The notes below the pieces were generated by a model. It saw only the letters and a list, made by a program, of their open reading frames with translations. It was not told the origin of the DNA and ran no database searches. A stretch of 45,507 nucleotides of DNA from Candidatus Kaiserbacteria bacterium RIFCSPLOWO2_01_FULL_50_24 (GTDB lineage: Bacteria > Patescibacteriota > Minisyncoccia > Phycocordibacterales > UBA2100). The position numbers and the translations under genes were made by a program. The stretch is taken from NCBI GenBank assembly GCA_001783335.1, contig MFLU01000019.1, forward strand, positions 1 to 45,507. Direction: 5' to 3'. Numbering within the stretch: the first letter of the stretch is position 1; each line of letters starts with the position of its first letter. Below are positions 9,610 to 34,346 of this stretch, in pieces.

Positions 9610-10880
9610 ATGAAAGTGGACGTATTGCTCGTGGGGAGCGGCGGGCGTGAGCATGCGCTTGCATGGAAGTTGAAGAAGTCGTCGCGACTCGGGAAGCTTT
9701 ATATTGCGCCTGGGAACGGTGGCACGCAGTCTGTAGGAGAAAATGTACCGATTGGGGTGATGGAGTTTGAAAAACTCGCAAAATTTGCGGAAGAAAAGAA
9801 TATCGGTCTCACGGTGTGTAGCGTGGACGATCCGCTCGTCGGCGGTATCGTTGATTTTTTCAAGCGCGCGACCTTCGCATTTTTGGGCCAACAAAAGATG
9901 CGGCTGAGATAGAAGGTTCGAAAGCATTCGCAAAGCAATTAATGCGCGACGTCGGTATTCCGACGGCAGATTTTTCAGTATTCACGAATTACGATGAAGC
10001 CATGCGGTATGTTCAGGAGAAGGGCGTTTCCATTGTCGTGAAAGCGAGCGGGCTTGCGCTTGGGAAGGGTGTTGCCGTGTGTCGTACGCTCGGCGAGGCA
10101 GAAACGGCGCTCAAGGAGATCATGCTCGACAGGGTTTTCAAGGATGCCGGCACGAAAGTCGTCATCGAGCGCTATCTCGAAGGACAGGAAGTCTCTATTC
10201 ATGCACTCTCGGATGGCAAGACGCACGTGATGTTTCCGGTGTCGCAAGATCATAAGACGATAGGAGAGGGGGATACTGGAAAGAACACGGGTGGCATGGG
10301 CGTTATCGCGCCGCTCTCGTTTGTTTCTGCCGAACTCATGCAAGAGATTGAGCGCATGATCGTGAAGCCAACATTTGATGCGCTTCGGAAAAAAGGTATC
10401 GAGTATAGCGGTATTCTCTACCCCGGCCTCAAGCTGACATCGATGGGACCGAAGGTGCTCGAATATAATGCCCGCTTCGGCGACCCAGAGTGCCAGGTTT
10501 ACATGCGACTCTTGAAAACCGATTTACTCGATATTTTGGACGCGTGCGTTGACGGCAAATTGTCGGATCAGCAGATAGAATGGAACACTGGCTTTGCCGC
10601 GAACATCGTGCTCGTCTCCGGCGGATATCCCGACGAATACAAAAAAGGATTGCCCATAACGGGCATAGGGGAAGCAGAAAAAGTTCCTGGTGTCGTTGTC
10701 TTCCACGCCAGCACGCAACATCAAGGTCCGGCCTTGATGACTGCTGGTGGGCGCGTTCTGAGCGTATCCGCAGTCGGCGCGACCTTGAAATCAGCGCTTG
10801 ACCGCGCATATGAAGCTGTCGGCAAGGTCCGCTTTGAAGGTATGTATTTCCGTCGTGACATTGGCGCTAAATCGTTGTAG
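9610..10880 (+). pseudogene. purD: phosphoribosylamine--glycine ligase, one frameshift at T-run 9855-9860 (probably sequencing error)
   Basis: VGSGGREHA, APGNGG in first frame; VKASGLALGKGV, NTGGMG, EYNARFGDPE, GGRVL, FRRDIG in second; one extra T restores GIVDFFQARDLRIFGPTKDAAEIEGSK. Confidence 0.9.
10719..10739 (+). repeat. 21-nt RAYT-associated palindrome, in frame in purD
   Basis: CATCAAGGTCCGGCCTTGATG identical to 33681..33701 and 34322..34342. Confidence 0.9.
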
Positions 10881-10901
10881 GTACGATGGTATAATTTCGT
10901 A

Positions 10902-13742
10902 ATGCCTCCGACATTTGAGAAATCGCTCGTTGCGAGCCAGGAAAAATTTAAGTCCCCGCAAGAAGAGCTGGCGTATTTGCGCGAGCGGGTGCGGGAGAAG
11001 GAGCACGCTCTTGAAAACCGCGAGCCGCTTGAGCGCGAGCGCGTGGCGCGCCGCGAGGTCGCGGTGTATGCCGAACAACATCCAGCAACTGTACTGCACG
11101 AGGAAGTAGTCATGCCGGAATATGAGAGCGTGCGCCATGCACTCGCACTTGAATCGGAAGAGCATGACGTTCAAATAGACGAGCTTTTAAGGATTGTGTC
11201 GGAGCGTGGAATCAGGAATGCACTTTCGGTAGTTGCCCGCATGAAGAATGTGCATCTTGAAGACGATCTTCACCGCGCGCTTGTGCGCTATATTGCCGAA
11301 GGTCTGCCGGAAAAAGGTCTTCCCCCAGCATATCAGGTTAACCGCGCGCTCCACCTCGTTCTTTTTGAGATTCATCCGCAGGCATACAACGGCAGAGGCG
11401 AAAACGAACAGCATAAAAAACTTGCCGAAGTGCTTGCTTCTTCAGAACAGCTCTATGCCGGTTTGCTCCCGCTCATAGGACGAAACGAAGGTTTCGCACT
11501 TGAAATCGCCGTGCCGGAAGGCACCGAAGAAGCGACTCTTTACTTATCAATTCCTAGGACGCGCCAAGCGCTAGCAGAGCGCCTCATAGCTTCGGTTTTT
11601 CCGAACGCTCACATTGAAGAGGCGCGCGGCGACTACAACATATTTAATTACAAAGGAGAGCATGCAGTCGCATATGCGACACTGAAACAGCATCCGGCGT
11701 TTCCTCTGAAAACGTACGATCAGTTTGAACATGATCCTCTTAACGTCCTTCTCGCGTCGTTCTCAAAAATAGCAAAACACGGTGAGGGTGCGGCGGTGCA
11801 AATTGTAGTGGGGAACGAGGGCGACCGTTACAACGCGCACTACAAAAAGATGATGCGCGAGCTTGAAAAGGGGCGCCATGTATCTGACGCACTTTCTGTT
11901 TCGGAAACGGCGTTTGGCGATGCGGTGCACGATTTTACAGAAGCCATATTTTTTTCTAAACAGAAAGAAGAGAAAAAAGAGCGGGAGCTTCGTCGCGGGT
12001 CCGATCAGGTTGCGACAGAGGAGATCGGGCGCAAAATCGGAAGCCGCATTGTTCCCGTGAATATTCGCATCGTGGCATCCGCCGCCACAAAAAAGAGGGC
12101 AGTGGAATTGGTGGATAATCTCGTGGCGCCGTTCAATCAATTTGACGATGCGCGCGGCAATCGCCTTCTGTTTACACACGTATCATTTTGGAGCAAAACC
12201 TCTTTCCTGCGGGATTTCACCTACCGCCTTTTTAACAATGCGACCGCGTGTCCCCTGTCGCTCGCGGAATTGACGGCAATGTTCCACTTTACCGCCGAGC
12301 GCGTTACCACCTCGCGCGAATTGAAGCGGGCGCACGCCAAACAATCGCCCGCGCCGGTTGAGATGGCGCACGACGGAATCACCGTTGGTATAAATCGCTA
12401 CGGTGCGACGGAGACCCCCGTTCTTTTTGGAGCACAAGATCGCCTGCGCCACGCCTACGTTATTGGACAGACAGGAACCGGAAAAACGGGGCTCATCAAG
12501 AACATGATTATGCAAGATATGAAAAACGGCGAAGGTGTGGCGTTCATTGATCCGCACGGAAATGATATAGAAGATATTCTCGCAATGGTGCCGCCGGAGC
12601 GCGCGCAAGATGTAATCTATTTTGATCCGGCGTATACAGCGCGCCCCATGGGGCTAAACATGCTTGAATACGATACGAATAGGCCGGAGATGAAAACATT
12701 CGTGATAGACGAAGTGTACGGTATTTTCCGCAAATTATACGCAGATATTCCGGAAGCATTTGGGCCGATGTTTGAACAGTACTACAGGAATGCCGTTCAG
12801 CTCGTCCTTGAAGATCCAGCAAGCGGAAATACTTTTTTGGAAATCCCTCGTGTTTTTGCGGATACGTCGTTCAGAAACCTGAAGCTTTCTCGCTGCAAAA
12901 ATCCTATCATCGTGCAATTTTGGAAAAAGATTGCTGAAGCGGCCGGCGGAGACCCGGCGCTTGAAAACATCGCGCCCTACATCACGTCCAAGTTTGATGC
13001 CTTTCTCACAAACGATATTATGCGCCCCATTGTGGCGCAGGAGCACTCGGCATTTAATTTTCGCGACATAATGGATGGGAAGAAAATTTTTATAGCAAAC
13101 CTCTCTAAAGGACGCTTGGGCGACCGCAACATGTCGTTGCTCGGACTCGTCCTTGTTTCAAAGTTTCTGCAAGCGGCATTTTCACGCGTGGACCCCGTTA
13201 GAAGTCAGAAAGTACAGGTTTCTGGCGGTATGTACAATGAAACTCACCTGACTTCTAACGGGGTGAATACTCGCGGTGGTAATTTACCAACGTTTTACCT
13301 CTACATTGACGAGTTCCAGAATTTTGCGACGCCCTCTATCGGTACGATTCTTTCCGAAGCGCGAAAGTACAAGCTCGCGCTCACCGTGGCGCACCAATTC
13401 ATCGCGCAACTTTCGGAAGACATCCGTGATGCGGTTATCGGGAATGTCGGCACGAAATTTTCGTTCCGTATCGGCACCACAGATGCAGAGTTTCTGGAAA
13501 AACAATTCAGCCCCATTTTCACCGCATACGACCTTGAAAACCTTCCCAATCGTCACGCGTGCGCTTCGCTTCTTGTAGACGGCGTGCCCGCACAGCCATT
13601 CACTTTGCGAACTACCGACTTGCCGCACATGGATTATGCGCGCGTGGATGCCATCAAAGAGCTTTCGCATACACAGTACGGCAGGGCCCGCGAAGAAATA
13701 GAGGAAGAGATACGCACCAAATTCCGCGAAACGCCGGATTGA
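10902..13742 (+). CDS. VirD4/TraD/HerA-like (DUF87-type) P-loop ATPase
   Basis: DRLRHAYVIGQTGTGKT Walker A, FIDPHG, LYIDEFQN Walker B, LSEARKY..L..AHQ. Confidence 0.85.
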   Translation: MPPTFEKSLVASQEKFKSPQEELAYLRERVREKEHALENREPLERERVARREVAVYAEQHPATVLHEEVVMPEYESVRHALALESEEHDVQIDELLRIVSERGIRNALSVVARMKNVHLEDDLHRALVRYIAEGLPEKGLPPAYQVNRALHLVLFEIHPQAYNGRGENEQHKKLAEVLASSEQLYAGLLPLIGRNEGFALEIAVPEGTEEATLYLSIPRTRQALAERLIASVFPNAHIEEARGDYNIFNYKGEHAVAYATLKQHPAFPLKTYDQFEHDPLNVLLASFSKIAKHGEGAAVQIVVGNEGDRYNAHYKKMMRELEKGRHVSDALSVSETAFGDAVHDFTEAIFFSKQKEEKKERELRRGSDQVATEEIGRKIGSRIVPVNIRIVASAATKKRAVELVDNLVAPFNQFDDARGNRLLFTHVSFWSKTSFLRDFTYRLFNNATACPLSLAELTAMFHFTAERVTTSRELKRAHAKQSPAPVEMAHDGITVGINRYGATETPVLFGAQDRLRHAYVIGQTGTGKTGLIKNMIMQDMKNGEGVAFIDPHGNDIEDILAMVPPERAQDVIYFDPAYTARPMGLNMLEYDTNRPEMKTFVIDEVYGIFRKLYADIPEAFGPMFEQYYRNAVQLVLEDPASGNTFLEIPRVFADTSFRNLKLSRCKNPIIVQFWKKIAEAAGGDPALENIAPYITSKFDAFLTNDIMRPIVAQEHSAFNFRDIMDGKKIFIANLSKGRLGDRNMSLLGLVLVSKFLQAAFSRVDPVRSQKVQVSGGMYNETHLTSNGVNTRGGNLPTFYLYIDEFQNFATPSIGTILSEARKYKLALTVAHQFIAQLSEDIRDAVIGNVGTKFSFRIGTTDAEFLEKQFSPIFTAYDLENLPNRHACASLLVDGVPAQPFTLRTTDLPHMDYARVDAIKELSHTQYGRAREEIEEEIRTKFRETPD
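13192..13264. mobile_element. miniature inverted-repeat element inserted in frame in the ATPase gene
   Basis: perfect 17-bp terminal inverted repeats ACCCCGTTAGAAGTCAG / CTGACTTCTAACGGGGT. Confidence 0.8.
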
Positions 13743-13816
13743 CCCACACACTTACTTTCGGTTTGCGCTTTGCGCGTTCTGGCTTTACCAGAACAAACCG
13801 AAAGTAAGTATGCGGG
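13743..13816. repeat. conserved-end hairpin element (family B)
   Basis: CCCACACACTTACTTTCGGTTTG ... CAAACCGAAAGTAAGTATGCGGG. Confidence 0.75.
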
Positions 13817-13870
13817 AGTTGCGGAGCCGCTTTAATTGTGTACACTTTCGCAGATGATTGGTAGAACGTT

Positions 13871-14944
13871 ATGAAATACGAAAAAGAATTCCCACTTTTT
13901 AAGACAAAAGTATCCGGAGTAACCCCGAAGTTTGATCTTTCAACACCCGAAGGTCGGGCCGGATATTTTGAAGCAAAAGCGGGCGAAGATATTCGCAAGC
14001 TAAAGGAGTACCTTAAAAGCCATACGTTTGTTGCCTATCTTCTTGCAAAGAAAAGCGCTGGCAAAGGCACCTATACGAAATTGATGCGGGAGATATTCGG
14101 CGACGTTATTGCCCACGTTTCCGTGGGAGACGTTGTGCGCGCAACACATCGGGTAATGGAAGATGAGTCCGAACACGCGACACGCTCTGAAATCATGGAA
14201 TATCTTGAGAAGCATTATCGCGGCTATATGTCGCTCGACGACGCGGTCAAGGCACTCCTTGGGCGCGACACAAAGAGCTTGTTACCCTCGGAGTTCATTC
14301 TTGCGCTCGTCAAACGCGAAATAGACGCGCTTCCGCGCGGTGCTCTGTTTATAGATGGTTTTCCTCGCGAACTGGATCAGGTGTCGTACGCGTTCTTTTT
14401 TCGCGACCTCGTTAACTACCGTAACGACCCGGATATTTTCATCGCGATAGATATTCCGATGAGCGTCATTGACGAGCGTATGAAGTATCGCGTGGTTTGC
14501 CCTACGTGCCAGACCCCGCGTAATGTCAAACTGCTCGCAACTAAGAATGTCGAGCATGATCAATCAAGTGGCGAGTTCTACCTGCTTTGCGACGAGCACG
14601 GAGAGCGCATGGTTGCCAAAGAGGGGGACACGGCAGGTATTGAGCCAATTCGTGCTCGCTTGGAAAAAGACGGCCAATTGATAGACAAAATGTTCTCTCT
14701 CCACGGTGTCCCAAAGATACTTTTGCGCAATGCGGTTCCGGCGGATACGGCGCTCCAATACGTTGACGATTATGAGCTTACACCCGAATACAGCTATAAG
14801 TGGGACGAAAAGAGCCAGAAGGTAACGACAAAGGAATCTCCGTGGACCATTAAGGATGACGAGGGTGTGGAAGTATACAGCTTGCTCGCTCCCGCAGTGG
14901 TCGTTGTCCTCATAAAGCAACTCGTGTCGGTCTTGAAACTCTAG
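13871..14944 (+). CDS. adenylate-kinase-like nucleoside monophosphate kinase, long form
   Basis: AKKSAGKGT P-loop variant, HVSVGD, FIDGFPR, LID-like CPTC...LCDEH. Confidence 0.7.
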   Translation: MKYEKEFPLFKTKVSGVTPKFDLSTPEGRAGYFEAKAGEDIRKLKEYLKSHTFVAYLLAKKSAGKGTYTKLMREIFGDVIAHVSVGDVVRATHRVMEDESEHATRSEIMEYLEKHYRGYMSLDDAVKALLGRDTKSLLPSEFILALVKREIDALPRGALFIDGFPRELDQVSYAFFFRDLVNYRNDPDIFIAIDIPMSVIDERMKYRVVCPTCQTPRNVKLLATKNVEHDQSSGEFYLLCDEHGERMVAKEGDTAGIEPIRARLEKDGQLIDKMFSLHGVPKILLRNAVPADTALQYVDDYELTPEYSYKWDEKSQKVTTKESPWTIKDDEGVEVYSLLAPAVVVVLIKQLVSVLKL

Positions 14945-14977
14945 TTGCATAATCGGATGGTGCTATACTAGAAAGTA

Positions 14978-15105
14978 GCGGCGGGTACAAAACCTGCAAC
15001 CAAAAAATAGGGCAGTCCGATTATCGCTGTGCGTCGTCAGAATCAAACTCGGGCGTATATGCTGTGGACTCCCACCTGGATTCATACCAGGTGCGTGCCT
15101 GCCGT
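14978..15105 (+). ncRNA. candidate structured ncRNA, 6S-like architecture
   Basis: extended -10 TGcTATACT upstream, 11-bp closing stem, central bubble, apical stem, terminator downstream. Confidence 0.45.
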
Positions 15106-15141
15106 CCCAAAAAACTTCGCTTCACGCGAAGTTTTTTGGGA
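15105..15141. terminator. intrinsic terminator
   Basis: tcccaaaaaacttcgc ... gcgaagttttttggga hairpin containing a T-run. Confidence 0.7.
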
Positions 15142-15163
15142 CTTGCTGTAGTAGTATGGAGCG

Positions 15164-15547
15164 ATGGAGCGAAAGCGGTTGTTGTATTTACAGGGCGCAG
15201 TTGCGACACTCGTTGGCTCCCTTCACCTTGTCGGCCTTGAGCATTTTTTATATTGGAAACTATGGTGGTACGACATTCCTACGCACTTTTTGGGCGGCGT
15301 ATGGGTGGCCCTCGCCTTATTGTGGGTGAGCGCGCTTCTCGGTGTGCGTATACGATGGTTTATCGTGCTTCTTGTGGTTCTTGCGGTCGGCGTTTTGTGG
15401 GAGCTTTTGGAGTTCGGAACCGGATTTACGCCTAAAGAAAACTATGCTCTTGACACCATTCTGGATCTCATCATGGATGTGGTCGGTGGTGTGTGCGGTG
15501 TGTGGGTAGTGCATACATTCAATAGCTCGCGCAGTGGTAGAATATAA
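15164..15547 (+). CDS. small 4-TM membrane protein (VanZ/DUF2238-like)
   Basis: WWYDIPTHFLGG, LWELLE, DTILDLIMD pattern. Confidence 0.65.
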   Translation: MERKRLLYLQGAVATLVGSLHLVGLEHFLYWKLWWYDIPTHFLGGVWVALALLWVSALLGVRIRWFIVLLVVLAVGVLWELLEFGTGFTPKENYALDTILDLIMDVVGGVCGVWVVHTFNSSRSGRI

Positions 15548-15549
15548 GG

Positions 15550-16251
15550 ATGGAAGAGCATACACGCGAACATGACACGCATACTGTTGTGCCGTACCCA
15601 AAAGATATGCGCGCATTTGCGCGTTATGCGCACGGTCACACGCTTTTGAAGGTCGCTGTTTCCGGCGCCGCCGTCACCGGCTATTGCGGATTGGATGTTT
15701 TTGAAAAGGCAAAAGAAATTGGGCGCGAAATCGCGCGACAAGGCGCCGCGATTGTTACCGGTGCCACAACCGGCTTTGCCTTTTATGCCACGATGGGCGC
15801 GAAAGAGGAGGGCGGATTTTCCATTGGCTTTTCTCCCGCCGCGACGGAGCGCGAGCACATGGAAGTATATAAACTCCCGCTTGATTATATGGACATCATC
15901 ATTTACACGGGATTCGGCTATGTTGGCAGAGACCTACTCATGATACGCGCATCGGATGCAGTTATTATCGGATGCGGGAGAATAGGCACCATAAATGAGT
16001 TTGCGGTAGCGTTTGAAGACAGGCGCCCCATAGGGATAGTTGACGGGAGTTGGGAAACGGATGAGATATTGAAAAACATCATCGATACGGCACATCGCGA
16101 GAATCCGCGTGTCTTTACGGATTCTGATGCAAAATCGCTTGTGGAGCACGTGATAGCGCAGGTCAAGAAAGATAAGCAAGAACTCAATTTTGTGTACAAC
16201 AGCCGTGATGGTGTGGGGGGAACGGGCAAGAACGCGGAGGTTATTCTTTAG
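15550..16251 (+). CDS. LOG/SLOG-family nucleotide-binding protein (TIGR00725-like)
   Basis: GREIA..GA.IVTGATTG, YTGFG..GRD, GRIGTINE. Confidence 0.8.
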   Translation: MEEHTREHDTHTVVPYPKDMRAFARYAHGHTLLKVAVSGAAVTGYCGLDVFEKAKEIGREIARQGAAIVTGATTGFAFYATMGAKEEGGFSIGFSPAATEREHMEVYKLPLDYMDIIIYTGFGYVGRDLLMIRASDAVIIGCGRIGTINEFAVAFEDRRPIGIVDGSWETDEILKNIIDTAHRENPRVFTDSDAKSLVEHVIAQVKKDKQELNFVYNSRDGVGGTGKNAEVIL

Positions 16252-16288
16252 CTCCTCCACTTCGTGTGTAGTTGGCGGAGCGGTAGTA

Positions 16289-16518
16289 GAACATGTCTGA
16301 AAACCCTTCGCTTCGTATGCATGTCTCTTCGGGGTCGCTGTCTGGGCTTGCTAGCCCAGCGCTCACTCTCGGCTCGTCAGCCTGCGAGAGACCCCGAAGA
16401 GACACGCCTCCTCGCTCCGGGTAAGCAAAGCTTTCCGGCAGCGCTCGTTCGGAAACGGAAAAATTCATTTTACCGTTTCGCTCACTCGTTTGCCGATAAA
16501 CAGTTTCAGGACATGCTC
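16289..16518. repeat. multibranched palindromic intergenic element
   Basis: outer gaacatgtctgaaa / tttcaggacatgctc, inner tgtctcttcggggtc / gaccccgaagagaca plus several small hairpins. Confidence 0.65.
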
Positions 16519-16522
16519 CAGT

Positions 16523-16867
16523 CTAGGAAAGTTTTTTGACGACGCGTGCAAATACTCCCGGATGGTCTTTTGCAAGCGTGGAGAGCACTTTTCTGTCAAG
16601 CGCCACGCCCTTTTTTTTGAGCACGTCTATCAGTTTTGAATATGAGAGACCATTCTCGCGGGCGGCGGCATTGAGACGCAGAGTCCACAGTTGACGCGCG
16701 TCGCGCTTTTTTGCTCTACGGTGTCTGAATGCATGTACTCCCGCGTGGAAGATGGCCTCACGCGCCACGCGTTGTTTTGTGGAGCGTCCGAAACGGTATC
16801 CCTTAACCTGCCGCAGAATGTTGCGGCGGCGCTTCATTGCAGTTGTTCCTCGTTTGACTCTACTCAT
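16523..16867 (-). CDS. rplT: 50S ribosomal protein L20
   Basis: MSRVKRG, KGYR, LWTLRLNAAAR, LDRKVLS. Confidence 0.97.
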   Translation of the reverse strand: MSRVKRGTTAMKRRRNILRQVKGYRFGRSTKQRVAREAIFHAGVHAFRHRRAKKRDARQLWTLRLNAAARENGLSYSKLIDVLKKKGVALDRKVLSTLAKDHPGVFARVVKKLS

Positions 16868-16913
16868 ATATTAGAGATTCTTAACGAATGATAATGAGTT
16901 TAGAAGCTCTTAT

Positions 16914-16967
16914 ACCCCGTGAAATCGCCGCGAAGCGGCGAGCGCCGAAGGCGCATTTCACTGGGGT
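16914..16967 (-). repeat. family A palindromic repeat
   Basis: ACCCCGTGAAAT...ATTTCACTGGGGT with two internal hairpins. Confidence 0.85.
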
Positions 16968-17001
16968 TGAGAAAAACATAGTTACCATACTCCTTAATTT
17001 T

Positions 17002-17184
17002 CTACAAAAATCTGCTTCTATCTGTGCGTGAAAAAGAGCCATTAACTCTCTGCGAACGTCGGTGGCGCTGACGCTCACTCCCGCTCCGCTTTGCGTTGAA
17101 GTGGTTGTGCCCGGCTGTGCGCGCCAAAATTTTCCCCGTACGGGTAACCTTGAGCCGCTTCAAGAACGATTTATTTGATTTCAT
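17002..17184 (-). CDS. rpmI: 50S ribosomal protein L35
   Basis: MKSNKSFLKRLKVTRTGKI...HNHF; between infC and rplT. Confidence 0.92.
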   Translation of the reverse strand: MKSNKSFLKRLKVTRTGKILARTAGHNHFNAKRSGSERQRHRRSQRVNGSFSRTDRSRFL

Positions 17185-17331
17185 GTGTTAGATTTTGTTA
17201 CGAGTTCATCCAGCACCTTTTATACACCGTGTGCTTGGTAAGGTGAAATAATACATTAGGGATTACTATTTGAATAATTTAAACTATCGCGCTTGAAAAG
17301 GTGCTGGACAGGGCGAGTTAGAAAATCTTAC

Positions 17332-17387
17332 ACCCCGTGAAATCCTCGCCGAAGGCGGGGAGCCGCGAAGCGGCATTTCACTGGGGT
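17332..17387 (-). repeat. family A palindromic repeat
   Basis: near reverse complement of 3420..3475. Confidence 0.85.
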
Positions 17388-17448
17388 TCGCAGTACTATA
17401 CAGTACCTTCTTCATTTTGCAAAAGTGGTGCTGGGCTAGCGGGCGCTT

Positions 17449-18012: not shown

Positions 18013-18056
18013 CTTGGTGTTAGATACTATACATCTCTTGTGAATAGTGGCAAGCG

Positions 18057-19340: not shown

Positions 19341-19403
19341 AGATTTAATCTATTGTATCACTTTGGATACGAGAATACTGTGGCGCGCCAACCTTGTAGT
19401 GAT

Positions 19404-19435
19404 ACACCCGCATATACTTAAGTATATGCGGGTGT
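19404..19435. repeat. perfect 32-bp palindrome (collapsed family B element)
   Basis: ACACCCGCATATACTT|AAGTATATGCGGGTGT. Confidence 0.8.
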
Positions 19436-19523
19436 GTACAGGATTTTGTGCCATGCGTATTGGTGTATGGTATGTTGCGGTGGGGTCGCGTGGCGCGGCT
19501 TCGTTACAAAAGGGAGAAAAAGC

Positions 19524-20545: not shown

Positions 20546-20562
20546 ATTGGATGGACGAAAAT

Positions 20563-21720: not shown

Positions 21721-21797
21721 AGTGGAGCCCCGCGTATGCTCGCGGGATTCTCACAAAATATAGTCGTCCTTCGCAAAGCTCAGGACTCGTTATTTTG

Positions 21798-22159
21798 TGG
21801 AGGTGTCGGGGAATGATCCCGAGTCCGAAGAAAAGTATGCACGGGTGTCTACGAGGCGTAGTTCATCTGAAGTTTTAAATGTGCCGAATAAAAGGTGAAC
21901 AGAAACTCGACACACCGAGTCCTAAGTCTTACGCGAGCGCAGGACTTCGCTCGCGAGTGCTTGAAGAATGACGCCCAACGAATTTACTCAAGCTCTACAT
22001 TCGTGGACGGCCGCTTAGGCAAAAGCGTAAGCAGGCTGAATCGGGGAAAGAACCCCGCCAGTGTTTTTCGCACTTGAATTTTTGAGGCAGTTTGAAAAGT
22101 TACCACAGCTTTGCCACGCTACGTACGATACCGTATCTTCGTCGAAGCCAGTCACCCCC
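21798..22159 (-). ncRNA. ssrA: transfer-messenger RNA; tag AKNTGGVLSPIQPAYAFA* at 22071..22015
   Basis: 5' GGGGGTGACTGGCTTCGAC, 3' GACTCGGG..CCCGACACCTCCA with G3-U pair, tag ending YAFA-stop, smpB nearby. Confidence 0.95.
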
Positions 22160-22390: not shown

Positions 22391-22438
22391 CCCCAGCCGT
22401 AGTTTTGCCCACTAGCAAAACTACGGCTGGGGAAATGT

Positions 22439-22621: not shown

Positions 22622-22646
22622 GGCGGTACCTCCTTTTTTGTTGGTT

Positions 22647-24423: not shown

Positions 24424-24505
24424 TGCTCTCATCAAGTTTTGCCACTCGGCGAAACTGAGGGGAGCATTTCCTTTTTAATTCAAATGTGTTATGATGTTTT
24501 ACGTT

Positions 24506-26440: not shown

Positions 26441-26667
26441 ACTCGGCAAAGAAAGTTTAGAAAATCACGAGCGTAGCGAGTAGATTTTCTTAACCCCGCT
26501 ACACTTTTGCATTTTTCTGATTGCAAAAGTGTGGTCGGGGAGGATATAGAACACCAGCCCATTGTTTAATTCTGTCTGTTGCTCTAGTGACTGTCTAAAA
26601 AATAGCCCGCCGCAGTTTTGCCAAAAAAGCAAAACTGCGGCGGGTACGTTGTCTGTCAACGCGCTGT

Positions 26668-27657
26668 TCAGCGTAGTAGTTGGTGCGCGCGCTCTATAAC
26701 AGAGCGAATATTCCATGGCTTCAAAATAGCGATAGAGCCGATGAATATGGAATCGCGTCCTCGCTCTAAACCTGCAGATACCAATTTATCCACATGGCTA
26801 GGGCGCAGTACTCCACCGCCGGCGCATATTGGCTTTGTTATACCGACATGTCGTATTGCCTCTATCTGTTCGCACACGAGCTTTCGCAAGGGCTCGCCAG
26901 ACAGGGCGCCGTTTCCGAACCGTTCGCTTCTCTTTGCAAGCGGCGATCCGTGCGGGAATAGTGTCTTCCAGTTGATTGCATCTCCGCGCACGCCGAAAGG
27001 AATGGCGTTAGACGTGCATAGTGCATCGCACGCAGGGTGCTTGCCTATACGCAACACGTCTAGAAGTGGCATGCACACATCAATTTTCACCACGAGCGGA
27101 ATACCGAGATGATTCATAACATCCAGCATTTCCAAAATTTCCTCTGCCAAAAGCTTCTCGGTGTGCACATTGGCACAACTCACATTGATTTGGAGTCCGA
27201 GTCGTTTGCGTAAAGACGGAATGAAATCAAGTTGTGTATTTAGAATATTCGTAAATCCGCGGCACTCTTTCATGCGCTGTGCCCTTTCGGGCGCAGCTGA
27301 ACCCCACGAAATCATAAATGGATTCTTTCCGTGCGCTTTCAGAAGTCCGGCAGAAAAAAGTTGTCCCGCGCCGGGGTTGGAAAATCCAATGGCGTTTAAT
27401 ACTATGCCCTGTCGCCGCGACCACCACACGCACTGCGGAAAAAGTTCTTGCGGTGCGTATCCTTCATGCCTGTCTGCGATAGGCATATTGCCTGCGTGCG
27501 AGGGGAGCGTTACTGTCTTTGCGACCGGCGTTGAGCCGGAAAAATCGTACCAGCGCTTGATTAGAGGCGCGCGGTGGAACCAGTATCCATCTTCCATAAA
27601 TCCGCGTAGTCCCGCCGCATCCAAACATGGGCCGAAATCTATTCCTCGGAGTATCAT
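26668..27657 (-). CDS. pyrD: dihydroorotate dehydrogenase family 1-like
   Basis: AKTVT...GN, LNAIGFSNPG, INVSCAN, VVKI, GALSG, AGGGV. Confidence 0.75.
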   Translation of the reverse strand: MILRGIDFGPCLDAAGLRGFMEDGYWFHRAPLIKRWYDFSGSTPVAKTVTLPSHAGNMPIADRHEGYAPQELFPQCVWWSRRQGIVLNAIGFSNPGAGQLFSAGLLKAHGKNPFMISWGSAAPERAQRMKECRGFTNILNTQLDFIPSLRKRLGLQINVSCANVHTEKLLAEEILEMLDVMNHLGIPLVVKIDVCMPLLDVLRIGKHPACDALCTSNAIPFGVRGDAINWKTLFPHGSPLAKRSERFGNGALSGEPLRKLVCEQIEAIRHVGITKPICAGGGVLRPSHVDKLVSAGLERGRDSIFIGSIAILKPWNIRSVIERAHQLLR

Positions 27658-27745
27658 TGCTCGTCTTCTTCTTTCTATTTTCTCCGCGTAGAACCATACC
27701 ACCCTTGTTGCAGGACTTCAAGCCGTTCGGTACGATGACTTACAT

Positions 27746-27817
27746 GCGCCCATAGCTCAAAGGTTAGAGCTTTCGGCTTATATCCGAAGGATCCTGGTTC
27801 GAGTCCAGGTGGGCGTA
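27746..27817 (+). tRNA. tRNA-Ile(UAU), CCA not encoded
   Basis: cloverleaf: GCGCCCA/TGGGCGT acceptor, TAGCTCAAAGGTTAGAGC D arm, TTCGG-CTTATAT-CCGAA anticodon arm, CCTGG-TTCGAGT-CCAGG T arm, A73. Confidence 0.93.
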
Positions 27818-27976
27818 CAAAAATAGGACTTTCCTAAAACCACTAACGCAACTACTTGCGTTAGTGAACGCGGCAAATGTGTGGCGTGTTGGGCGAAGGA
27901 AGGTGGCGCGTTGACATATACGGCTCGTACACACCCCACCACTTTTCTTTTTCAGTTCCCATGCCACAATGGGGGA

Positions 27977-29518
27977 ATGGCTACGTCATACAATAGTATT
28001 GCGATTGCATTTGCAGTCGTCGTCTTTCTCCTCCTCCCATTTGCTGTTAGCGCGGCAACGGTAAACGTGTCGGCAGGCGATAATTTCTTTTCGCAAAAAA
28101 ATATAACCATCAATCAGGGAGATACGGTTGTGTGGACGAATACCGGCGCTATGATTCATACCGTAACGGCGGATAACAACTCTTTTGACAGCGGTAATCT
28201 TTCGCCGGGGCAAACATACTCTCTTATATTTAATACACCTGGCACATATCCGTATTACTGCAAACCGCACGGCTCTCCCGGGGGCTTGGGCATGGCGGGA
28301 ACGGTGAATGTTGTGGCAGTGGCGACGCCGCCTGTACAAACGTCGTCTGGAACAACGACCGATGTATTGCGCGCGCAAATAGAAGATTTATTAAGACGCG
28401 TTGAAGTATTACAGCAGCGGATTGCGGCGGTGGGCGGCGGTTCTCCGGTTTCAACCAGCGTGGCGCCTTCGTCGGGATTTACATGTCCGCGTGTCGGTGT
28501 CACGCTCCGCCGCGGCTCTACAGGAGAGGACGTAACGCGTCTTCAGCAGTTTCTCGCACTTGATCCAAGCATCTACCCGGAAGGATTAGTAACTGGTTAC
28601 TTTGGAACACTCACTGAGGCGGCGGTGGCGCGTTGGCAAACGCGACACAATATCGTTTCAAGTGGCTCTCCGGAGACGACTGGCTATGGTCAGTATGGTC
28701 CGCGCACAGCGTCCTTGATGGCGGTGAAGTGTCAAGAAGCGAAAATGGGCGCCACCGGAGCGCAAGTGGGAGGGTTTATCAAAGTCTCCCCAATTTCCGG
28801 CAGCGCACCTCTTTCCGTGAATGTTGAGGCAACGATAAATACGACGCGCTCGTGCAACGTTGCAACATACACGGTGAATTTCGGCGATGGCTCACCGGTG
28901 GTTAATATCCCTATTTCTGCCGGTGTGTGCGCGGAGCAGAAGTATACGCTTACTCATATATACCAGTACGGCGGCACATACAGCATGGAACTGCTTGCGG
29001 GTGGCCACAAAACGCAAGCAACGGTTGTTGTTTCGGGCGCATCGCCTCCTCCGACCGTAACGTCTTCCTGTTCGACTGACATTGCCGCGGCGCAAGCAGA
29101 TGCATCTGGGAAGATTTGTACGCAAGTCGTCGCTAACCTTCTTTGTCCGTACAACAACTCCTACGTATACTCTGCGCCGAACGGATGCCAATCCGATTAC
29201 CTAAAGGCGCGGAGTTGGGTGGTAGAGAGCGAGTCAACTCTCACGGTAAAATACGGCGGCATGAGTATTACGCCTGATCCGAGCGGAAATTACCTCACCG
29301 TTGAGGCGTCATTTGACGTGGGCGTATGCGACGGGTACGTACTTTTGTGGGGAGATGGATACACCTCCAATCAGACATCAACCACGTCGTGCTCTTCAAA
29401 TTCCATAACGACAAAAACGCTTTCGCACACCTATTCGGCGGCGGGGACGTACTCCATAGAGCTCACGCGTGCCGACCAGAAAGAACTGGTGGAAGTGGTA
29501 ATCGTCGCCGATTATTAA
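27977..29518 (+). CDS. secreted cupredoxin + peptidoglycan-binding + PKD-like multidomain protein
   Basis: signal peptide; HTVT and YYCKPH..GM type-1 Cu ligands; LRRGSTGEDVTRLQQFL..TGYFGTLTEAAV..WQ; NFGDG/WGDG and HTY..GTY. Confidence 0.85.
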   Translation: MATSYNSIAIAFAVVVFLLLPFAVSAATVNVSAGDNFFSQKNITINQGDTVVWTNTGAMIHTVTADNNSFDSGNLSPGQTYSLIFNTPGTYPYYCKPHGSPGGLGMAGTVNVVAVATPPVQTSSGTTTDVLRAQIEDLLRRVEVLQQRIAAVGGGSPVSTSVAPSSGFTCPRVGVTLRRGSTGEDVTRLQQFLALDPSIYPEGLVTGYFGTLTEAAVARWQTRHNIVSSGSPETTGYGQYGPRTASLMAVKCQEAKMGATGAQVGGFIKVSPISGSAPLSVNVEATINTTRSCNVATYTVNFGDGSPVVNIPISAGVCAEQKYTLTHIYQYGGTYSMELLAGGHKTQATVVVSGASPPPTVTSSCSTDIAAAQADASGKICTQVVANLLCPYNNSYVYSAPNGCQSDYLKARSWVVESESTLTVKYGGMSITPDPSGNYLTVEASFDVGVCDGYVLLWGDGYTSNQTSTTSCSSNSITTKTLSHTYSAAGTYSIELTRADQKELVEVVIVADY

Positions 29519-29573
29519 ATTTCCTATTTCGCGGCGCGGCCTTGTTTATTGGCGTGTAATACCCCGTAGCTTA

Positions 29574-29712
29574 CCCCCACACACTTACTTTGATGTTGTG
29601 TTTTTTATTGCATGTCATGCACGTTTTCAAAAGTTATTTTGTAAAGAGACGGGACGCATAAAGCGTAAGTTCCAAAACACGCATGCAATGACATCAAAGC
29701 AAGTGTCGGGGG
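29574..29712. repeat. family B hairpin element
   Basis: CCCCCACACACTTACTTTGATGT ... ACATCAAAGCAAGTGTCGGGGG. Confidence 0.75.
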
Positions 29713-29742
29713 CTTGTCTCGCGGATCGACGGGCGACCTGTT

Positions 29743-31932
29743 TTATTCCCCATGTATTTCTTGAGATGCTGCTGTGGCGCGCGCCGCCAGCATGGGATTT
29801 TTAGAGAGAGAAGGATTTTCAGCAACCACCCTTCGCGCTTCGGTGCGGGCGGCTTCGATGAGTCGGGGATTCTTTAGCGCCTCCATACCTATATCAGAAA
29901 CACCCCACTGGCTTTTGCCGTAGAGGTCGCCCGCGCCTCGATTCTCAAGGTCGGCTTCGGCGAGTTTGAATCCGTCATCGCCTTTTTCGAGCGCACGCAA
30001 GCGTTTCATTGAAAGCTCACTTTTGGTTTCCGGCAAGAGAAAACACACGGGCGGGTGCTCCGAGCGCATAACTCTGCCGCGTAGTTGATGGAGCTGTGCC
30101 AATCCGAATCGCTCCGCGCCTTCAATGAGGATTGCGGTCGCGTTGGGGACGTTGACACCCACCTCTACCACGGACGTTGCGACGAGAATATCAATTTTTC
30201 CGTCTGCAAAATCCTTCATAACACTCTCTTTGTTCGGTTTTCCGCCGGAGGCGGACCCGCCTTTGGCGGGCATTGCACCGTGAAGAAGGCCGATTTCATA
30301 TTCCGGGAACACTTCCTTTTTTAGCCGCACGGCTTCAGCTTTCGCACTCTTGGCTTGAAGCGCGTTCCATTTCGCGGGGTCAGGCTCTTCCACACGCGGA
30401 CAGATGACGTACGCCTGCCTTCCCGAAGCAAGTTCTCGCCGTATCGCTTCGTATGCACGCTCGCGCTCGCTCGACTTTACGATTATTGTTGTTACTTTCG
30501 CACGGCCGGGCGGTAGTTCATCCAAAACCGAAATGTCCAAGTCGCCGTATATCGTGAGTGCGAGAGTTCTAGGAATGGGTGTGGCGGTCATACTTAGAAA
30601 ATGTGACGCCGAATCTCCTTTGTGCGCAAGCTCTCGTCTTTGCGAAGTGCCAAACCTATGTTGTTCGTCAACGATGCAGAACGCAAGGTGTTGGAACTTA
30701 ACGGATTTTTGTATAAGCGCGTGCGTGCCAACTAGCATTGCGATCTCGCCGTTAGCGACCCATTTCAAGAGTTGCGCACGCGAAATATCGGTCGTCTCTC
30801 CACGCTTCACTTTTGAGGGGAATTTCTTACAAATCTTTCCTGTGATGAGGGCTATGTTTATCGGAAGATGAGAGAAGTATTCTATAAATGTCTGAAAATG
30901 TTGTGTGGCGAGAATCTCTGTTGGTGCCATATAGGCGATCTGGAGGGTGCCCGAAGTTCTCTGTGGAGGACGTGAATGTACGACCGTGTACGCTGTTGCG
31001 GCTGCGACCAGGGTTTTTCCGCTCCCTACATCACCCTCCAAGAGTCGCGCCATCGGGTGGGGTTTCCCAAAATCCACAAGTATTTCGTTGATAGCTCGAC
31101 GTTGTGCTCCTGTCGGGGAAATGTCGAGCGCGGCAAGGAACTTTTCCGCATGTGCCTTTGCGTCGGTAATGGGAAACGAGGCGAGCGTATCGTTCTCCGC
31201 GCGCTCTTTCGCGCGCGATATCTGGAGCACGAATATCTCCTCGAACGCGAATCGTTTTCGTGCAGCTTCCGCCTCGCGCTCGGTTTTCGGTTTGTGCATC
31301 GCGAGGAGCGAACGCGTGAGGTTGGGAAGGTGATAGCGCTCGCGAATGTCGGCAGGGACAGGGTCTTCAAACCGCTTCAGTACGTCGGACGCCAATACTC
31401 GCTCGAGCGCGTGGTAGAACCAGCGTGACGTGACACCACGACTTTCTGGGTAGACCGGAAAATAGCTGCTAGCTCCTAGCTTCAAGCTGCTAGGAGACTC
31501 AAAAATACCTTGCGGCATCGCTCCAGCTGGCACGGCTTCCACTTCGGGGTTTGCGATGTATGGCCGTTCGGCTTTGCCGCCAACGGTGCCACTCAATTTC
31601 ACCACCGATGTTTGTGGCACATAAGATGCCATGTATGGCTGGTTGAACCACATCACCTTGACCTTTCCGGATACATCCTCGAACCACCCCTCGGTTACAT
31701 TGCGTTTGCTTTTCCACAACTTTTTTGCTTTTAGTTTCGTGAGAGCACCTATAAGGGCCACTTTTGTTCCAGGCACGAGTCGCGCCGCTTCTCCAGATGA
31801 ACCCGCGGCCTCATAACGGGCTGGGAAATGATAGAGAAGGTCTCTTACGGTCGCAACATGCAACTTTTTTAGTGCCGATTTCTGGAGTGGCGTAAGGCGA
31901 AAATGATTGTCGAGCATATCTTCGGGCGACAT
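29743..31932 (-). CDS. recG: ATP-dependent DNA helicase RecG
   Basis: RLLEGDVGSGKT, MAPTEILA, DEQHRFG, MTATPIPRTL, QLHQLRGRV; start chosen at ATG 31932. Confidence 0.96.
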   Translation of the reverse strand: MSPEDMLDNHFRLTPLQKSALKKLHVATVRDLLYHFPARYEAAGSSGEAARLVPGTKVALIGALTKLKAKKLWKSKRNVTEGWFEDVSGKVKVMWFNQPYMASYVPQTSVVKLSGTVGGKAERPYIANPEVEAVPAGAMPQGIFESPSSLKLGASSYFPVYPESRGVTSRWFYHALERVLASDVLKRFEDPVPADIRERYHLPNLTRSLLAMHKPKTEREAEAARKRFAFEEIFVLQISRAKERAENDTLASFPITDAKAHAEKFLAALDISPTGAQRRAINEILVDFGKPHPMARLLEGDVGSGKTLVAAATAYTVVHSRPPQRTSGTLQIAYMAPTEILATQHFQTFIEYFSHLPINIALITGKICKKFPSKVKRGETTDISRAQLLKWVANGEIAMLVGTHALIQKSVKFQHLAFCIVDEQHRFGTSQRRELAHKGDSASHFLSMTATPIPRTLALTIYGDLDISVLDELPPGRAKVTTIIVKSSERERAYEAIRRELASGRQAYVICPRVEEPDPAKWNALQAKSAKAEAVRLKKEVFPEYEIGLLHGAMPAKGGSASGGKPNKESVMKDFADGKIDILVATSVVEVGVNVPNATAILIEGAERFGLAQLHQLRGRVMRSEHPPVCFLLPETKSELSMKRLRALEKGDDGFKLAEADLENRGAGDLYGKSQWGVSDIGMEALKNPRLIEAARTEARRVVAENPSLSKNPMLAARATAASQEIHGE
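30241..30270 (-). mobile_element. 30-nt double-hairpin element in frame in recG (PAKGGSASGG)
   Basis: CCCGCCAAAGGCGGG + TCCGCCTCCGGCGGA interrupting LLHGAM-KP. Confidence 0.8.
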
Positions 31933-31940
31933 CTTCAGCA

Positions 31941-32084
31941 GTATACCCCCGACACCTTTCCGCGTCATTGCTTTGTGTTCCTGTTGTTTTACAGACTTCG
32001 GTCGCATGTTGATGAAAGCGCGTTCCCTATTTGACGTTGAGCGGGCAATAGAAACACAAGACGCAGAAAGGTGTGGGGGTATAC
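31941..32084. repeat. family B hairpin element upstream of recG
   Basis: GTATACCCCCGACACCTTTCCGCGTC ... GACGCAGAAAGGTGTGGGGGTATAC. Confidence 0.75.
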
Positions 32085-32391
32085 ATCGCGCTTGTTGTAT
32101 TTTTCCACCCCAAGCGGAGGAGGCGCACCTGTTTGGGAGACTTAACCCCAGCGGAGTCCAGCACCACTTTTGCACTTGGTACTCGGTAACTCCGGTTATA
32201 CGAACGCTTGCGTTTGCGTTTCGTACCACAACAGAACTCTCACTGCAAAAGTGGTGCTGGGCGTGAGCGGTCTCCCAAACAGGTGCGCTGACGGAGCGCC
32301 CACTTGTCCACACCCTCACCTCCACCCCCTTGCCAACCGCAAATCCATGGATATTATGGTCGTGTTAAAAGTTAATCATTAATCTGTTGCT

Positions 32392-32526
32392 ATGTTTTAC
32401 AGCGACGATGAGGATGATGTAAGCGAGGGGGTAGCAGAGGGTGTGTCTCTCGCCGGTCCGGAGGACGAGGACGAGGGTTTTGGCGGTGGAGTGGACACGG
32501 CAGTAAGTGAGAAGGAGTTTGAGTAG
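32392..32526 (+). CDS. 44-aa highly acidic peptide (below ORF-track cutoff)
   Basis: MFYSDDEDDVSEGVAEGVSLAGPEDEDEGFGGGVDTAVSEKEFE*, followed by a strong hairpin. Confidence 0.55.
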   Translation: MFYSDDEDDVSEGVAEGVSLAGPEDEDEGFGGGVDTAVSEKEFE

Positions 32527-32541
32527 TCAAAGTGTAAGGAG

Positions 32542-32597
32542 CAAAAACGCCCCGCCCCAGTTTTGTTTTGAGTCAAAACTGGGGCGGGGCGTTTTTG
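32542..32597. terminator. long hairpin / terminator
   Basis: caaaaacgccccgccccagttttg ... caaaactggggcggggcgtttttg. Confidence 0.7.
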
Positions 32598-32629
32598 TAT
32601 TTTGCATCTATGTGCACTATAGTTCCTCT

Positions 32630-33502
32630 ATGTCACAACACTGTTTTCTCAATGGAAAACTCGTTTCGCTTTCCAAGGCGACGCTGTCGGTGCACGACAT
32701 CGGTGTTCTGCGCGGGTTTGGATTGTTCGAGGCGCTCCGCACGTACAAAAGAAAACCATTTCATCTGGGCGACCACCTTCGGCGTCTCAAAAACGCCGCA
32801 GAACGTTTCAATATTCAAGTTCCAATGTCCGATGCAAAAATCGCGCGAGCGATTGACGCACTCGTCGCAAAAAATGTTTCGAAAAACAAAGAAGCGAATA
32901 TACGGATTATCCTTACGGGAGGTGAGGCGATTCACCTGATTGAATTCCGTCCCGCACACCCCACGTTCTACATTCTCGCCGAAGAATTCAAGCCGCCTCT
33001 CACGCAATACTATCAAAGTGGGTGCACACTTATCGTTCAGGAGTTTCAAAGACAGTTTCCGGAATATAAAACGACGAATTATATACAGGCCGTGTCGCTC
33101 CAAACGAAAATGAAAAAAGCGGGAGCGCTTGAGATTTTGTATGTGTCGGACGGCCTAGTGCGAGAATGTTCCGCAAGCAACATTTTTATCGTAAAGCGCG
33201 GTGTACTCGTAACGCCACACAAAATGATTTTGGAAGGCATTACGCGCAAAGTGGTGATTCAGGAAGCGCGCCGCGCCGGTATCCGTGTTAAAGAGCGCGA
33301 TGTCTCGGTGCAGGAGCTCTATAATGCAGACGAGGCATTCATCGCCTCAAGTTTCAAAGAAATTGTGCCGGTAATCAAAGTCGGTAACCGCAAAATCGGA
33401 AACGGCAAAGTCAGCCCCACAACCACACGCGTTATAGATCTTTTCCGAGCGGCAACACATCTAAACCATCAAGGCCGGACCTTGATAAATGTGGTATTGT
33501 AG
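32630..33502 (+). CDS. PLP-dependent aminotransferase class IV (IlvE/Dat/PabC family)
   Basis: RGFGLFEALR, HLRRL, YKTTNY, ECSASNIF, ILEGITR. Confidence 0.9.
   Translation: MSQHCFLNGKLVSLSKATLSVHDIGVLRGFGLFEALRTYKRKPFHLGDHLRRLKNAAERFNIQVPMSDAKIARAIDALVAKNVSKNKEANIRIILTGGEAIHLIEFRPAHPTFYILAEEFKPPLTQYYQSGCTLIVQEFQRQFPEYKTTNYIQAVSLQTKMKKAGALEILYVSDGLVRECSASNIFIVKRGVLVTPHKMILEGITRKVVIQEARRAGIRVKERDVSVQELYNADEAFIASSFKEIVPVIKVGNRKIGNGKVSPTTTRVIDLFRAATHLNHQGRTLINVVL
33467..33486 (-). repeat. RAYT-associated palindrome, reverse orientation
   Basis: CATCAAGGCCGGACCTTGAT, translated HQGRTLI at the aminotransferase C-terminus. Confidence 0.85.
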
Positions 33503-33512
33503 CATTATGGGG

Positions 33513-34217
33513 ATGAGGTCAATACAGTTCGCGCCCGGTGAATGGTACCACTGCTTCACGCGTGGCGTCGACAAGCGTCGCATTTACATGAACGAAAAAG
33601 ATGCTGAACGCTTTCTTATGTTGCTCTACATATGTAACAACACCAAGCCGGTTCATATCAGTAATCTTTGTCACCCACGTCATCAAGGTCCGGCCTTGAT
33701 GGATGTTTTGAGCTTAAAGCGTCATGCACCCATCGTGGACATTGGTTGCTATTGCCTAATGCCCAATCATCCGCACTTTCTACTACAAGAAAGGGACTAT
33801 GGCGGCATTACCACCTTTATGCAGAAGCTACTTACGGCGTACACGATGTTTTTCAACAAAAAATATGAACGAACTGGAACTCTGCTCTCCGGACGTTTCA
33901 AGGCAGTGCATGTGGAGAGTGATTCGCATTTTAGGAGGGTCGTTAACTATATTCATGCCAACCCCGCGGAGTTGTATGAGCCCAAGTGGAAAGAGGGGAT
34001 CGTTCGCAATGAGATGCAACTAAAGAAGAAGTTGCTTGCATATCCATACTCCAGTTTCCCCGACTACGAAGGTGTTGAGCGGCCGCACAATCTCATTGTG
34101 AATATCAATGCGGCAATGGAACACCTGCATAAAAAACCCTCATACAAGACCCTTATTGACGATGCGCGTACGTTCCACCGACAAGAACGAGATACGCTCA
34201 AGGAGTTGGCGTCCTAA
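33513..34217 (+). mobile_element. REP-associated tyrosine (HUH, Y1) transposase, RAYT/IS200-like
   Basis: YHCFTRG, LMPNHPH (HUH), GRFK, YIHANP catalytic Tyr, YPYSS; flanked by palindromic repeats. Confidence 0.9.
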
Positions 34218-34220
34218 CAC

Positions 34221-34346
34221 TACGCCACTCTCATCAAGGTCCGGTCTTGATGAGAACTACCGGAAGGTCGATGATTTCATGCTAAGGAACGATCATTTCG
34301 CCTTCCATCTTGCGTCACACTCATCAAGGTCCGGCCTTGATGAGAA
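34221..34346 (+). repeat. two 36-nt direct repeats, each containing the palindrome, 54-nt spacer
   Basis: tacgccactctcatcaaggtccggtcttgatgagaa (34221) and tgcgtcacactcatcaaggtccggccttgatgagaa (34311). Confidence 0.85.

Follow-up and report, generated by a model that had tools for sequence, protein, structure and literature searches.

A RAYT-like transposase gene in a Candidatus Kaiserbacteria genome and its palindromes beside the gene, within it and within other protein genes

Work on repetitive extragenic palindromes (REPs) and the REP-associated tyrosine transposases (RAYTs) has dealt almost exclusively with Proteobacteria and has treated REPs as extragenic. How, then, does a palindrome of this kind come to lie in frame inside protein genes, including that of the transposase itself? 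The question is raised by contig MFLU01000019.1 of Candidatus Kaiserbacteria bacterium RIFCSPLOWO2_01_FULL_50_24 (assembly GCA_001783335.1), a member of the Candidate Phyla Radiation (CPR). The whole contig of 45,507 nucleotides (nt), hereafter the window, holds a RAYT-like gene of the HUH (histidine-hydrophobic-histidine) Y1 type and five copies of a 21-nt palindrome, whose family we call F1. A sequence-only reading of the window had proposed a RAYT/REP system that writes a fixed heptapeptide into protein loops. We consider it likely that the 21-mer is the cognate REP-like hairpin of this RAYT-like enzyme and was spread by it, that the survivors within genes are those in tolerant loops, and that the peptide is a by-product. 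Coding copies in RAYT/REP systems are in themselves a known phenomenon, as PMC3733652 (Di Nocera et al. 2013) documents; here such a system occurs in the CPR, its families small and numerous within a genome.

The window is contig C19 of the source genome (22 contigs, 848,802 bases, 50% G+C). Below, C-numbers are its contigs, G-numbers the genomes compared (G000 being the source genome) and L-numbers loci. The features concerned are the following.

33489..34217, + strand: gene of a RAYT-like HUH (Y1) tyrosine transposase; the longest open reading frame (ORF) has 242 codons
33467..33487, - strand: F1 palindrome just upstream of the RAYT-like gene, loop reversed, 1 mismatch
33681..33701, + strand: F1 palindrome inside the RAYT-like ORF, exact; codons 65-71, read as HQGPALM, in a low-confidence loop before the HUH strand
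34232..34252, + strand: F1 palindrome 14 nt past the RAYT-like stop codon, 1 mismatch, in the stem
34322..34342, + strand: F1 palindrome 104 nt past the RAYT-like stop codon, exact
10719..10739, + strand: F1 palindrome inside purD, exact; read as HQGPALM, replacing a beta-hairpin loop with no net length gain
9595..10880, + strand: purD, with GARS_N in ORF 9595-9912 and GARS_A and GARS_C in ORF 9942-10880; 1 nt is lacking near 9862, which splits the gene
32633..33502, + strand: class IV aminotransferase gene, start uncertain, whose final 11 codons cross the upstream F1 copy

All five copies were found where the sequence-only reading had placed them. In 100 shuffles of the window that preserved its dinucleotides there was not one match, even with up to 3 mismatches allowed. 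As single-stranded DNA, every copy forms a hairpin of 8-11 bp closed by a 5-nt loop, at -5.7 to -10.3 kcal/mol (z of -3.1 to -7.5). Relative to the start of the RAYT-like gene, the four neighbouring copies lie at -22, +192, +743 and +833. The frames in the window are also as described: PurD and the RAYT-like ORF read HQGPALM, and the aminotransferase ORF reads HQGRTLI within its final 11 codons.

Is the gene a RAYT? It had been described as a RAYT flanked by its cognate palindrome, and the motifs, the fold and the flanking copies bear this out for a RAYT-like HUH enzyme. The ORF scores 27.9 bits against Pfam Y1_Tnp (cut-off 23), and an alignment of 12 relatives shows no variation at H94 and H96 of the HUH motif or at Y154, H156 and N158. 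An AlphaFold2 model built from this 12-sequence alignment has a mean predicted local distance difference test (pLDDT) of 84.7 and a predicted template-modelling score (pTM) of 0.84. Among solved structures, its top Foldseek match is 4er8_A, a complex of the E. coli REP-associated tyrosine transposase with a REP hairpin (E 7.3e-5; TM 0.65, normalised by target length), and the TnpA proteins of IS608 and ISDra2 come next. A sequence search of the PDB with the same protein gave nothing at E up to 1. Judging by the alignment of paralogs, translation probably begins at the ATG of 33507 or 33513. A one-copy rule does not hold, as there are seven RAYT-like paralogs of 30-63% identity in the 849 kb of the genome. 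In fold, motifs and context the gene resembles a RAYT, but it stays below the curated family cut-off, lacks the GTAG tag and departs from the one-copy rule; we call it RAYT-like.

The association of gene and palindromes is not peculiar to this locus. We collected 118 distinct RAYT-like genes from the same genus and from 80 named Patescibacteria records. An 11-nt word is common to the upstream and downstream flanks in 97 of the 111 genes with both flanks whole. The three-place pattern of hairpins before, inside and after the gene recurs at the paralogs C10:101836 and C11:4406 and in other species, the hairpin sequences differing each time. Each paralog has its own hairpin family of 7-24 near-matches (at most 2-3 mismatches), and the source genome holds at least five enzyme-hairpin pairs and about twenty palindrome families of three or more copies.

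Why would such an enzyme carry its hairpin within its own gene? Five of the seven paralogs have a palindrome in the same loop (nt 175-233), each with a sequence of its own, and all five are identical to the palindrome found just before and/or after their own gene. In the two close paralogs, of 63 and 61% identity, HQGPALM gives way to RQGPTLP and GQGKALP. The core CAAGG...CCTTG is shared; the outer stem is CAT...ATG here and CGG...CCG in the C10 paralog, a compensatory change, and these outer-stem differences occur on both arms and are mirrored in the flanking copies of each paralog. Across the 118 genes, a perfect stem of at least 8 lies in the region matching residues 55-85 in 31 cases, compared with 1, 4 and 7 in the three control windows taken from each gene. 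When stems of at least 7 in this loop are counted, there are 33 such genes, with copies in both flanks (15), in one flank (10) or in neither (8). An 11-nt word links nt 160-250 to a flank in 35 of 111 genes; for the rest of the gene, around five-fold longer, the count is 22. The structural model places the REP-coded residues 63-67 in a loop between the helix 36-48 and the HUH-bearing strand, and this is the sole internal stretch with pLDDT below 50.

A second internal hotspot was seen at nt 479-516, after the catalytic-tyrosine helix, in L239, L244, L246, L248 and L251 of other Patescibacteria. The palindrome there is the gene's own flanking one, and two genes are occupied at both places. This hotspot coincides with the third control window (near nt 480-516) and is weaker than the one in the loop.

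These data could mean that the internal copy is a selected cis-regulatory site, with the enzyme binding the hairpin of its own gene or mRNA and thereby limiting its own expression. Such a role would fit the excess of stems over the control windows, the match of all five internal palindromes to their own flanks in a genome that holds many families, and the compensatory stem changes between paralogs of 60-63% identity. It fits less well with the 87 of 118 genes that have no hairpin in the loop. On a tree of the 118 genes built without the hairpin-loop columns, the presence of the hairpin requires at least 22 state changes (shuffles gave 27.7 +/- 1.7, with 1 in 500 at 22 or fewer). The loop is also longer when the hairpin is present, as repeated gain predicts: between two invariant anchors its median length is 32 residues with the hairpin and 28 without, on average about 3 residues more. 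The hotspots in PurD and UvrB described below are similar and have no such role. Finally, the E. coli K-12 rayT, our single classical control, has no word of at least 10 in common with its flanks; a family search of the control genomes for classical RAYTs gave no loci. We therefore regard regulation by the internal copy as a possibility, and a rather doubtful one. Our own reading of the sequences is that the copy marks a hotspot loop that the enzyme's own hairpin would have entered, or been lost from, repeatedly, as a trait of the family. The copy inside the RAYT-like gene is thus no one-off (5 of 7 paralogs, 31 of 118 relatives): the alignment of orthologs that had been suggested as a check does provide many genes without the hairpin, and it shows a recurrently occupied loop rather than an insertion specific to this gene.

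Is the peptide itself what is being spread? Allowing at most 2 mismatches, the source genome has 16 F1 copies on 10 contigs, so the motif is not confined to the five sites of the window. Four are in Pfam-supported genes, namely purD, the RAYT-like gene, the asparagine synthase gene asnB (at residue 175, read as YQGPALI) and uvrB (at residue 430, read as SRSGLDE in a frame different from that of the other coding copies). Two others are at gene ends, one in the tail of the aminotransferase ORF and one at codon 11 of a thiamine pyrophosphate (TPP)-enzyme ORF, 34 codons ahead of its first Pfam domain. The remaining 10 lie between genes or in short ORFs that match no Pfam family. That the palindrome lies in frame inside genuine protein genes is thus confirmed for purD, asnB and uvrB. 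The idea of a fixed heptapeptide has to be given up in view of SRSGLDE in UvrB, YQGPALI in AsnB and HQGRTLI in the aminotransferase. The shared coding frame is real among the window copies and does not extend to UvrB. Since TGA closes two of the six frames of the 21-mer, leaving four open, and since UvrB uses another frame and the aminotransferase the other strand, frame sharing is weak evidence for a chosen peptide. The F1 core occurs in 5 of 60 other genomes (36 of the 60 from the same genus), as one or two one-mismatch copies, and is missing from the rest. Hence, among the genomes searched, the family is species-specific.

Some F1 copies have repeated surroundings. Beside three of them, half of the hairpin and its flank are tandemly duplicated, with periods of about 18, 22 and 15 nt by eye (L002:2994-3050, C3 8993; L009:2960-3030, C18 17513; L003:2790-2830, C4 6809). 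One edge of these duplications falls in the hairpin loop, between TCC and GG or between T and CCGG, which may point to nicking or stalled replication there. In L001:3320-3500 (C2 30323-30500), two F1 copies stand exactly 90 nt apart within a 90-nt tandem duplication. The two copies 3' of the RAYT-like gene are likewise 90 nt apart, but their surroundings are unrelated to those of the C2 pair.

The host genes show how the coding copies are accommodated. In an alignment of PurD from 22 genomes, the loop between FHAGT and TxGGRV has its usual length in the source genome, which supports the earlier proposal that the palindrome replaces the loop. The same loop is occupied by unrelated palindromes in 4 of the 22 genomes; in the three other species the stems are 11-14 bp long and the net gains +3, +3 and +2 residues. 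For the palindromes of G006 and G004, the families comprise 11 and 6 dispersed places, respectively, and flank RAYT-like genes. In G014 (L035, around nt 2277-2303), the left arm of the palindrome encodes MMEN, close to the usual KMEN of this loop, and its sequence suggests that it may be an inverted duplication made in place. The empty-site check proposed earlier did not succeed, as no purD allele without the repeat was found in a protein search or in the contigs of four public runs (contigs drop rare variants). The protein search returned an identical 312-residue form (13 contigs), one form with a 36-residue deletion, and then relatives of at most 75% identity. In the four runs, identical contigs span both the F1 copy and the frameshift of purD, and all else consists of distant relatives. 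Neither is therefore an error of a single assembly. As for the frameshift, positions 9850-9870 are one base short in GAT TTT TTC AAG relative to orthologs, and a -1 shift on T TTT TTC would restore DFFQARDLRI (DFFQARGLRI in the closest ortholog). The split purD could be a pseudogene, a split gene or a case of ribosomal slippage.

UvrB and AsnB give a more varied picture. The F1 copy in UvrB is a clean gain of 7 residues against most of 24 orthologs, and five other species have different palindromes at the same place (+7, +16, +7, +6 and +6 residues), such that 6 of the 25 genes are occupied. Across these 25 uvrB genes (50 kb), all stems of at least 11 fall at residues 429-433, except one at residue 332 in G011. 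At 27 nt, the UvrB palindrome exceeds the gain of 21 nt, which means that a portion of one arm is native. In AsnB, the F1 copy is length-neutral, the closest homolog being only 47% identical, and a second palindrome, unrelated to F1 (residue 375), is a clean gain of 8 residues against 17 of 17 homologs. Judging from these alignments, insertion and replacement both occur. Two further families, one a perfect palindrome of 42-44 nt and the other of the CCCCGTTAGAGGC type, were each seen in different repair or housekeeping genes, in more than one species. The same-family pairs are L286 (G000 uvrA, residue 372) with L114 (the G014 uvrB loop), and L093 (asnB, residue 375) with L122 (G011 uvrB, residue 332). 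Some families are thus shared within the genus.

Palindromes that replace as many residues as they bring could have been made or enlarged in place, by fold-back or template-switch replication in which one flank is copied as its reverse complement, and then made uniform by short-patch gene conversion, the enzymes being bystanders or mere suppliers of nicks. The length-neutral changes in PurD and AsnB would follow naturally, as would the G014 palindrome with its near-native left arm and no partner in the genome, the native part of the UvrB arm, the tandem duplications with an edge in the hairpin loop at three F1 copies, and the concerted evolution of the internal and flanking copies of each RAYT-like gene. 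We nonetheless find this origin improbable for the system as a whole, although for part of the palindromes it is still a serious contender. Identical 21-mers at 16 unlinked places need transfer between sites, gene conversion requires flanking homology that the target loops do not have, and the PurD palindromes of G006 and G004 come from dispersed families that flank RAYT-like genes. A bolder idea is that enzymes and hairpins together overwrite short coding stretches with a hairpin of roughly equal length, in a templated loop replacement aimed at a few loops, among them those of nucleotide excision repair genes and of the enzyme's own gene, where the internal copy would be a self-limiting operator. 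This, too, we think unlikely. If true, it would be a reaction not described for HUH transposases, and hairpins would be a regular source of protein-loop variation in reduced genomes.

How general are such hairpins in the genome? Perfect hairpins with a stem of at least 8 and a loop of at most 8 number 548, against around 95 in block shuffles; with a stem of at least 10 there are 268, against around 7. These 268 strong hairpins form 164 groups, 131 of which have a single member. The genome is about 86% coding, and three quarters of the strong hairpins are in the 14% that is non-coding, which shows that coding copies are still selected against. Gene calls for this census were greedy longest ORFs, cruder than those of a gene finder. 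On this basis, 66 of the 268 are well inside 57 ORFs of at least 150 residues, and 47 in 39 ORFs of at least 300 residues (36 of the 39 have Pfam support; the other 3 may be spurious). The repair-type hosts are UvrA, UvrB, UvrC, UvrD, LigA, RecJ and an HhH-GPD glycosylase, and the exonuclease III homolog Xth carries a stem-8 copy. By simple arithmetic, 8-9 of the 66 intragenic hairpins fall in seven repair genes that account for about 1.9% of the coding length. Other hosts include ParB, ComEC, two recombinases, NusA, two tRNA synthetases, the beta and gamma subunits of ATP synthase, IMPDH and Mur ligases. Among the loci surveyed, L262, L271 and L276 (on C1, C4 and C10) encode a UvrD with intein/Hint domains, an Ile/Val-type tRNA synthetase with an inserted His_Phos_1 domain and a LeuRS with an inserted NUDIX domain.

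With most strong hairpins outside genes, one may ask if the repeats are simply host elements with a function of their own, in protein binding, in transcription or mRNA stability, or as uptake signals, and stand near HUH genes for unrelated reasons. Roles of this sort have been proposed for REPs (PMC3733652). This explanation has very little to commend it here, as the families are species-specific, differing even within one genus, and each tracks its own HUH paralog. No Rfam match was found at these places and by eye no T run follows the window copies, on which grounds we also rejected a terminator reading of F1.

We return to the reading we favour, spread by the enzyme. By analogy with the E. 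coli TnpA-REP in vitro, the enzyme would nick and join single-stranded hairpin DNA and so seed new copies, which would land preferentially close by. Selection would then leave the intergenic copies together with stop-free, in-frame copies in tolerant surface loops. The survival of only these would explain why the copies are in loops and why the same loops recur across species. The peptide would be a by-product of a DNA palindrome, not a designed tag, with a frame that varies by gene. The copy inside the enzyme gene was most likely put there by the enzyme acting locally, over a short range, or else by gene conversion from its flanks, and either process would keep internal and external copies similar to each other. 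That the internal copy might be a binding site for self-regulation is speculation.

Several observations weigh against this reading. The link between enzyme and repeat is purely positional. Against the NCBIfam RAYT model NF047646, the protein scores 36.1 bits and all seven paralogs 32-41 bits, below the cut-off of 80. The tag that E. coli TnpA-REP needs is missing, with GTAG or CTAC within 12 nt of F1 in only 2 of 16 copies. F1 has tens of copies at most, whereas REPs have hundreds. Its orientation (10 with and 6 against the local majority gene strand) reveals no bias, unlike the lagging-strand targeting of the IS608 type, although the contigs are fragmented. Given the 22 or more changes on the tree, the hairpin in the RAYT loop is not stably kept. 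In G014, whose genome is 93% complete, the palindrome in PurD stands alone, without a further copy. The length-neutral replacement in PurD (4 of 4 species) and AsnB is not explained by cut-and-paste or copy-in insertion. This replacement, the choice of the same loop across species, the excess in repair genes and the tandem duplications are all left unexplained by the proposed mechanism.

The window also contains long perfect palindromes of other families, with stems of 16-24, at 15104-15142, 19404-19435, 22391-22432, 26606-26644, 32542-32597 and 39811-39861. Three of them have in common the inner motif ...CAGTTTTG / ...GTAGTTTTGC; this group counts 6 copies, none inside a crude gene of at least 150 residues. 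The Rfam matches in the window are limited to a tmRNA gene (21795-22159, - strand) and a tRNA gene (27746-27817, + strand). In a synteny comparison, the aminotransferase gene was present in 1 of 24 same-genus genomes.

What is new in these observations can be judged against previous works. The sequence-only reading took REPs to be normally extragenic and coding palindromes to be known from Rickettsia. The second point holds. The first needs qualification, since PMC3733652 reports REPs inside genes of several species, read in frame, many of them in genes for replication and global repair, with uvrA, uvrB and ligase among these. It also states that some intragenic repeats of R. conorii are RPE-4 and RPE-6, and that REPs overlap the ends of RAYT genes. 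Our literature searches turned up no description of REPs or RAYTs in Patescibacteria. They found none of a REP at a fixed place inside a RAYT ORF, including in PMC6006769 and 10.1101/119735. Nor did they find any of unrelated palindromes recurring in one orthologous loop, or of length-neutral loop replacement by a REP. For all four, the coverage of PMC3733652 excludes its supplementary lists (additional files 3 and 4, on intragenic REPs and REPtrons). Apparently new, then, are the enzyme's own hairpin at a fixed loop of the transposase gene in many lineages, the recurrently occupied loops of PurD and UvrB, and codon-for-codon replacement. The 21-mer and its 242-residue enzyme are natural substrates for studying how RAYTs choose their targets, a mechanism that is unclear even in E. 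coli. The results also bear on the annotation of CPR proteins, in which odd loop insertions may often be hairpin repeats, and on why repair genes so often host such repeats.

The system resembles several known ones in part. Like the IS200/IS605 elements IS608 and ISDra2, it has a Y1 HUH transposase with hairpins near both gene ends; it differs in that no identical whole-element copies exist (paralogs are at most 63% identical), the hairpins spread alone, and there is no lagging-strand orientation bias. The Rickettsia palindromic elements (RPE) are likewise palindromic repeats that lie in frame in protein genes and are tolerated in the products; the units here are 21-44 nt long and stand beside HUH genes. 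Classical RPE-1 is much longer than these units, and we know of no linked transposase described for it.

Compared with the intragenic REPs of PMC3733652, the likeness is in the in-frame position in repair genes, here UvrA, UvrB, UvrC, UvrD, LigA, RecJ, the HhH-GPD glycosylase and Xth, whereas the phylum, the unrelated palindromes within one loop, the loop replacement and a transposase gene as host set our case apart. Relative to classical REPs, F1 is also short, hairpin-forming and dispersed, but partly intragenic and with 16 copies rather than hundreds. The closest relatives are the REPtrons of Proteobacteria, such as that of the E. coli TnpA-REP (4ER8). According to PMC3479197, that enzyme binds the hairpin, cleaves nearby and transfers strands in vitro, and needs a GTAG tetranucleotide at the hairpin foot. 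Our protein is longer (about 240 residues vs 165), scores below the NCBIfam cut-off and has no GTAG tag, and its genome has seven diverged paralogs with small families of 7-24 near-matches. A copy lies inside the ORF in around a quarter of the genes, and in none for the rayT of E. coli K-12 (one genome). The two nevertheless share the HUH Y1 fold, the histidine-hydrophobic-histidine motif and the catalytic tyrosine, and in both the gene is bracketed by its own short palindromes, with further copies dispersed in the genome.

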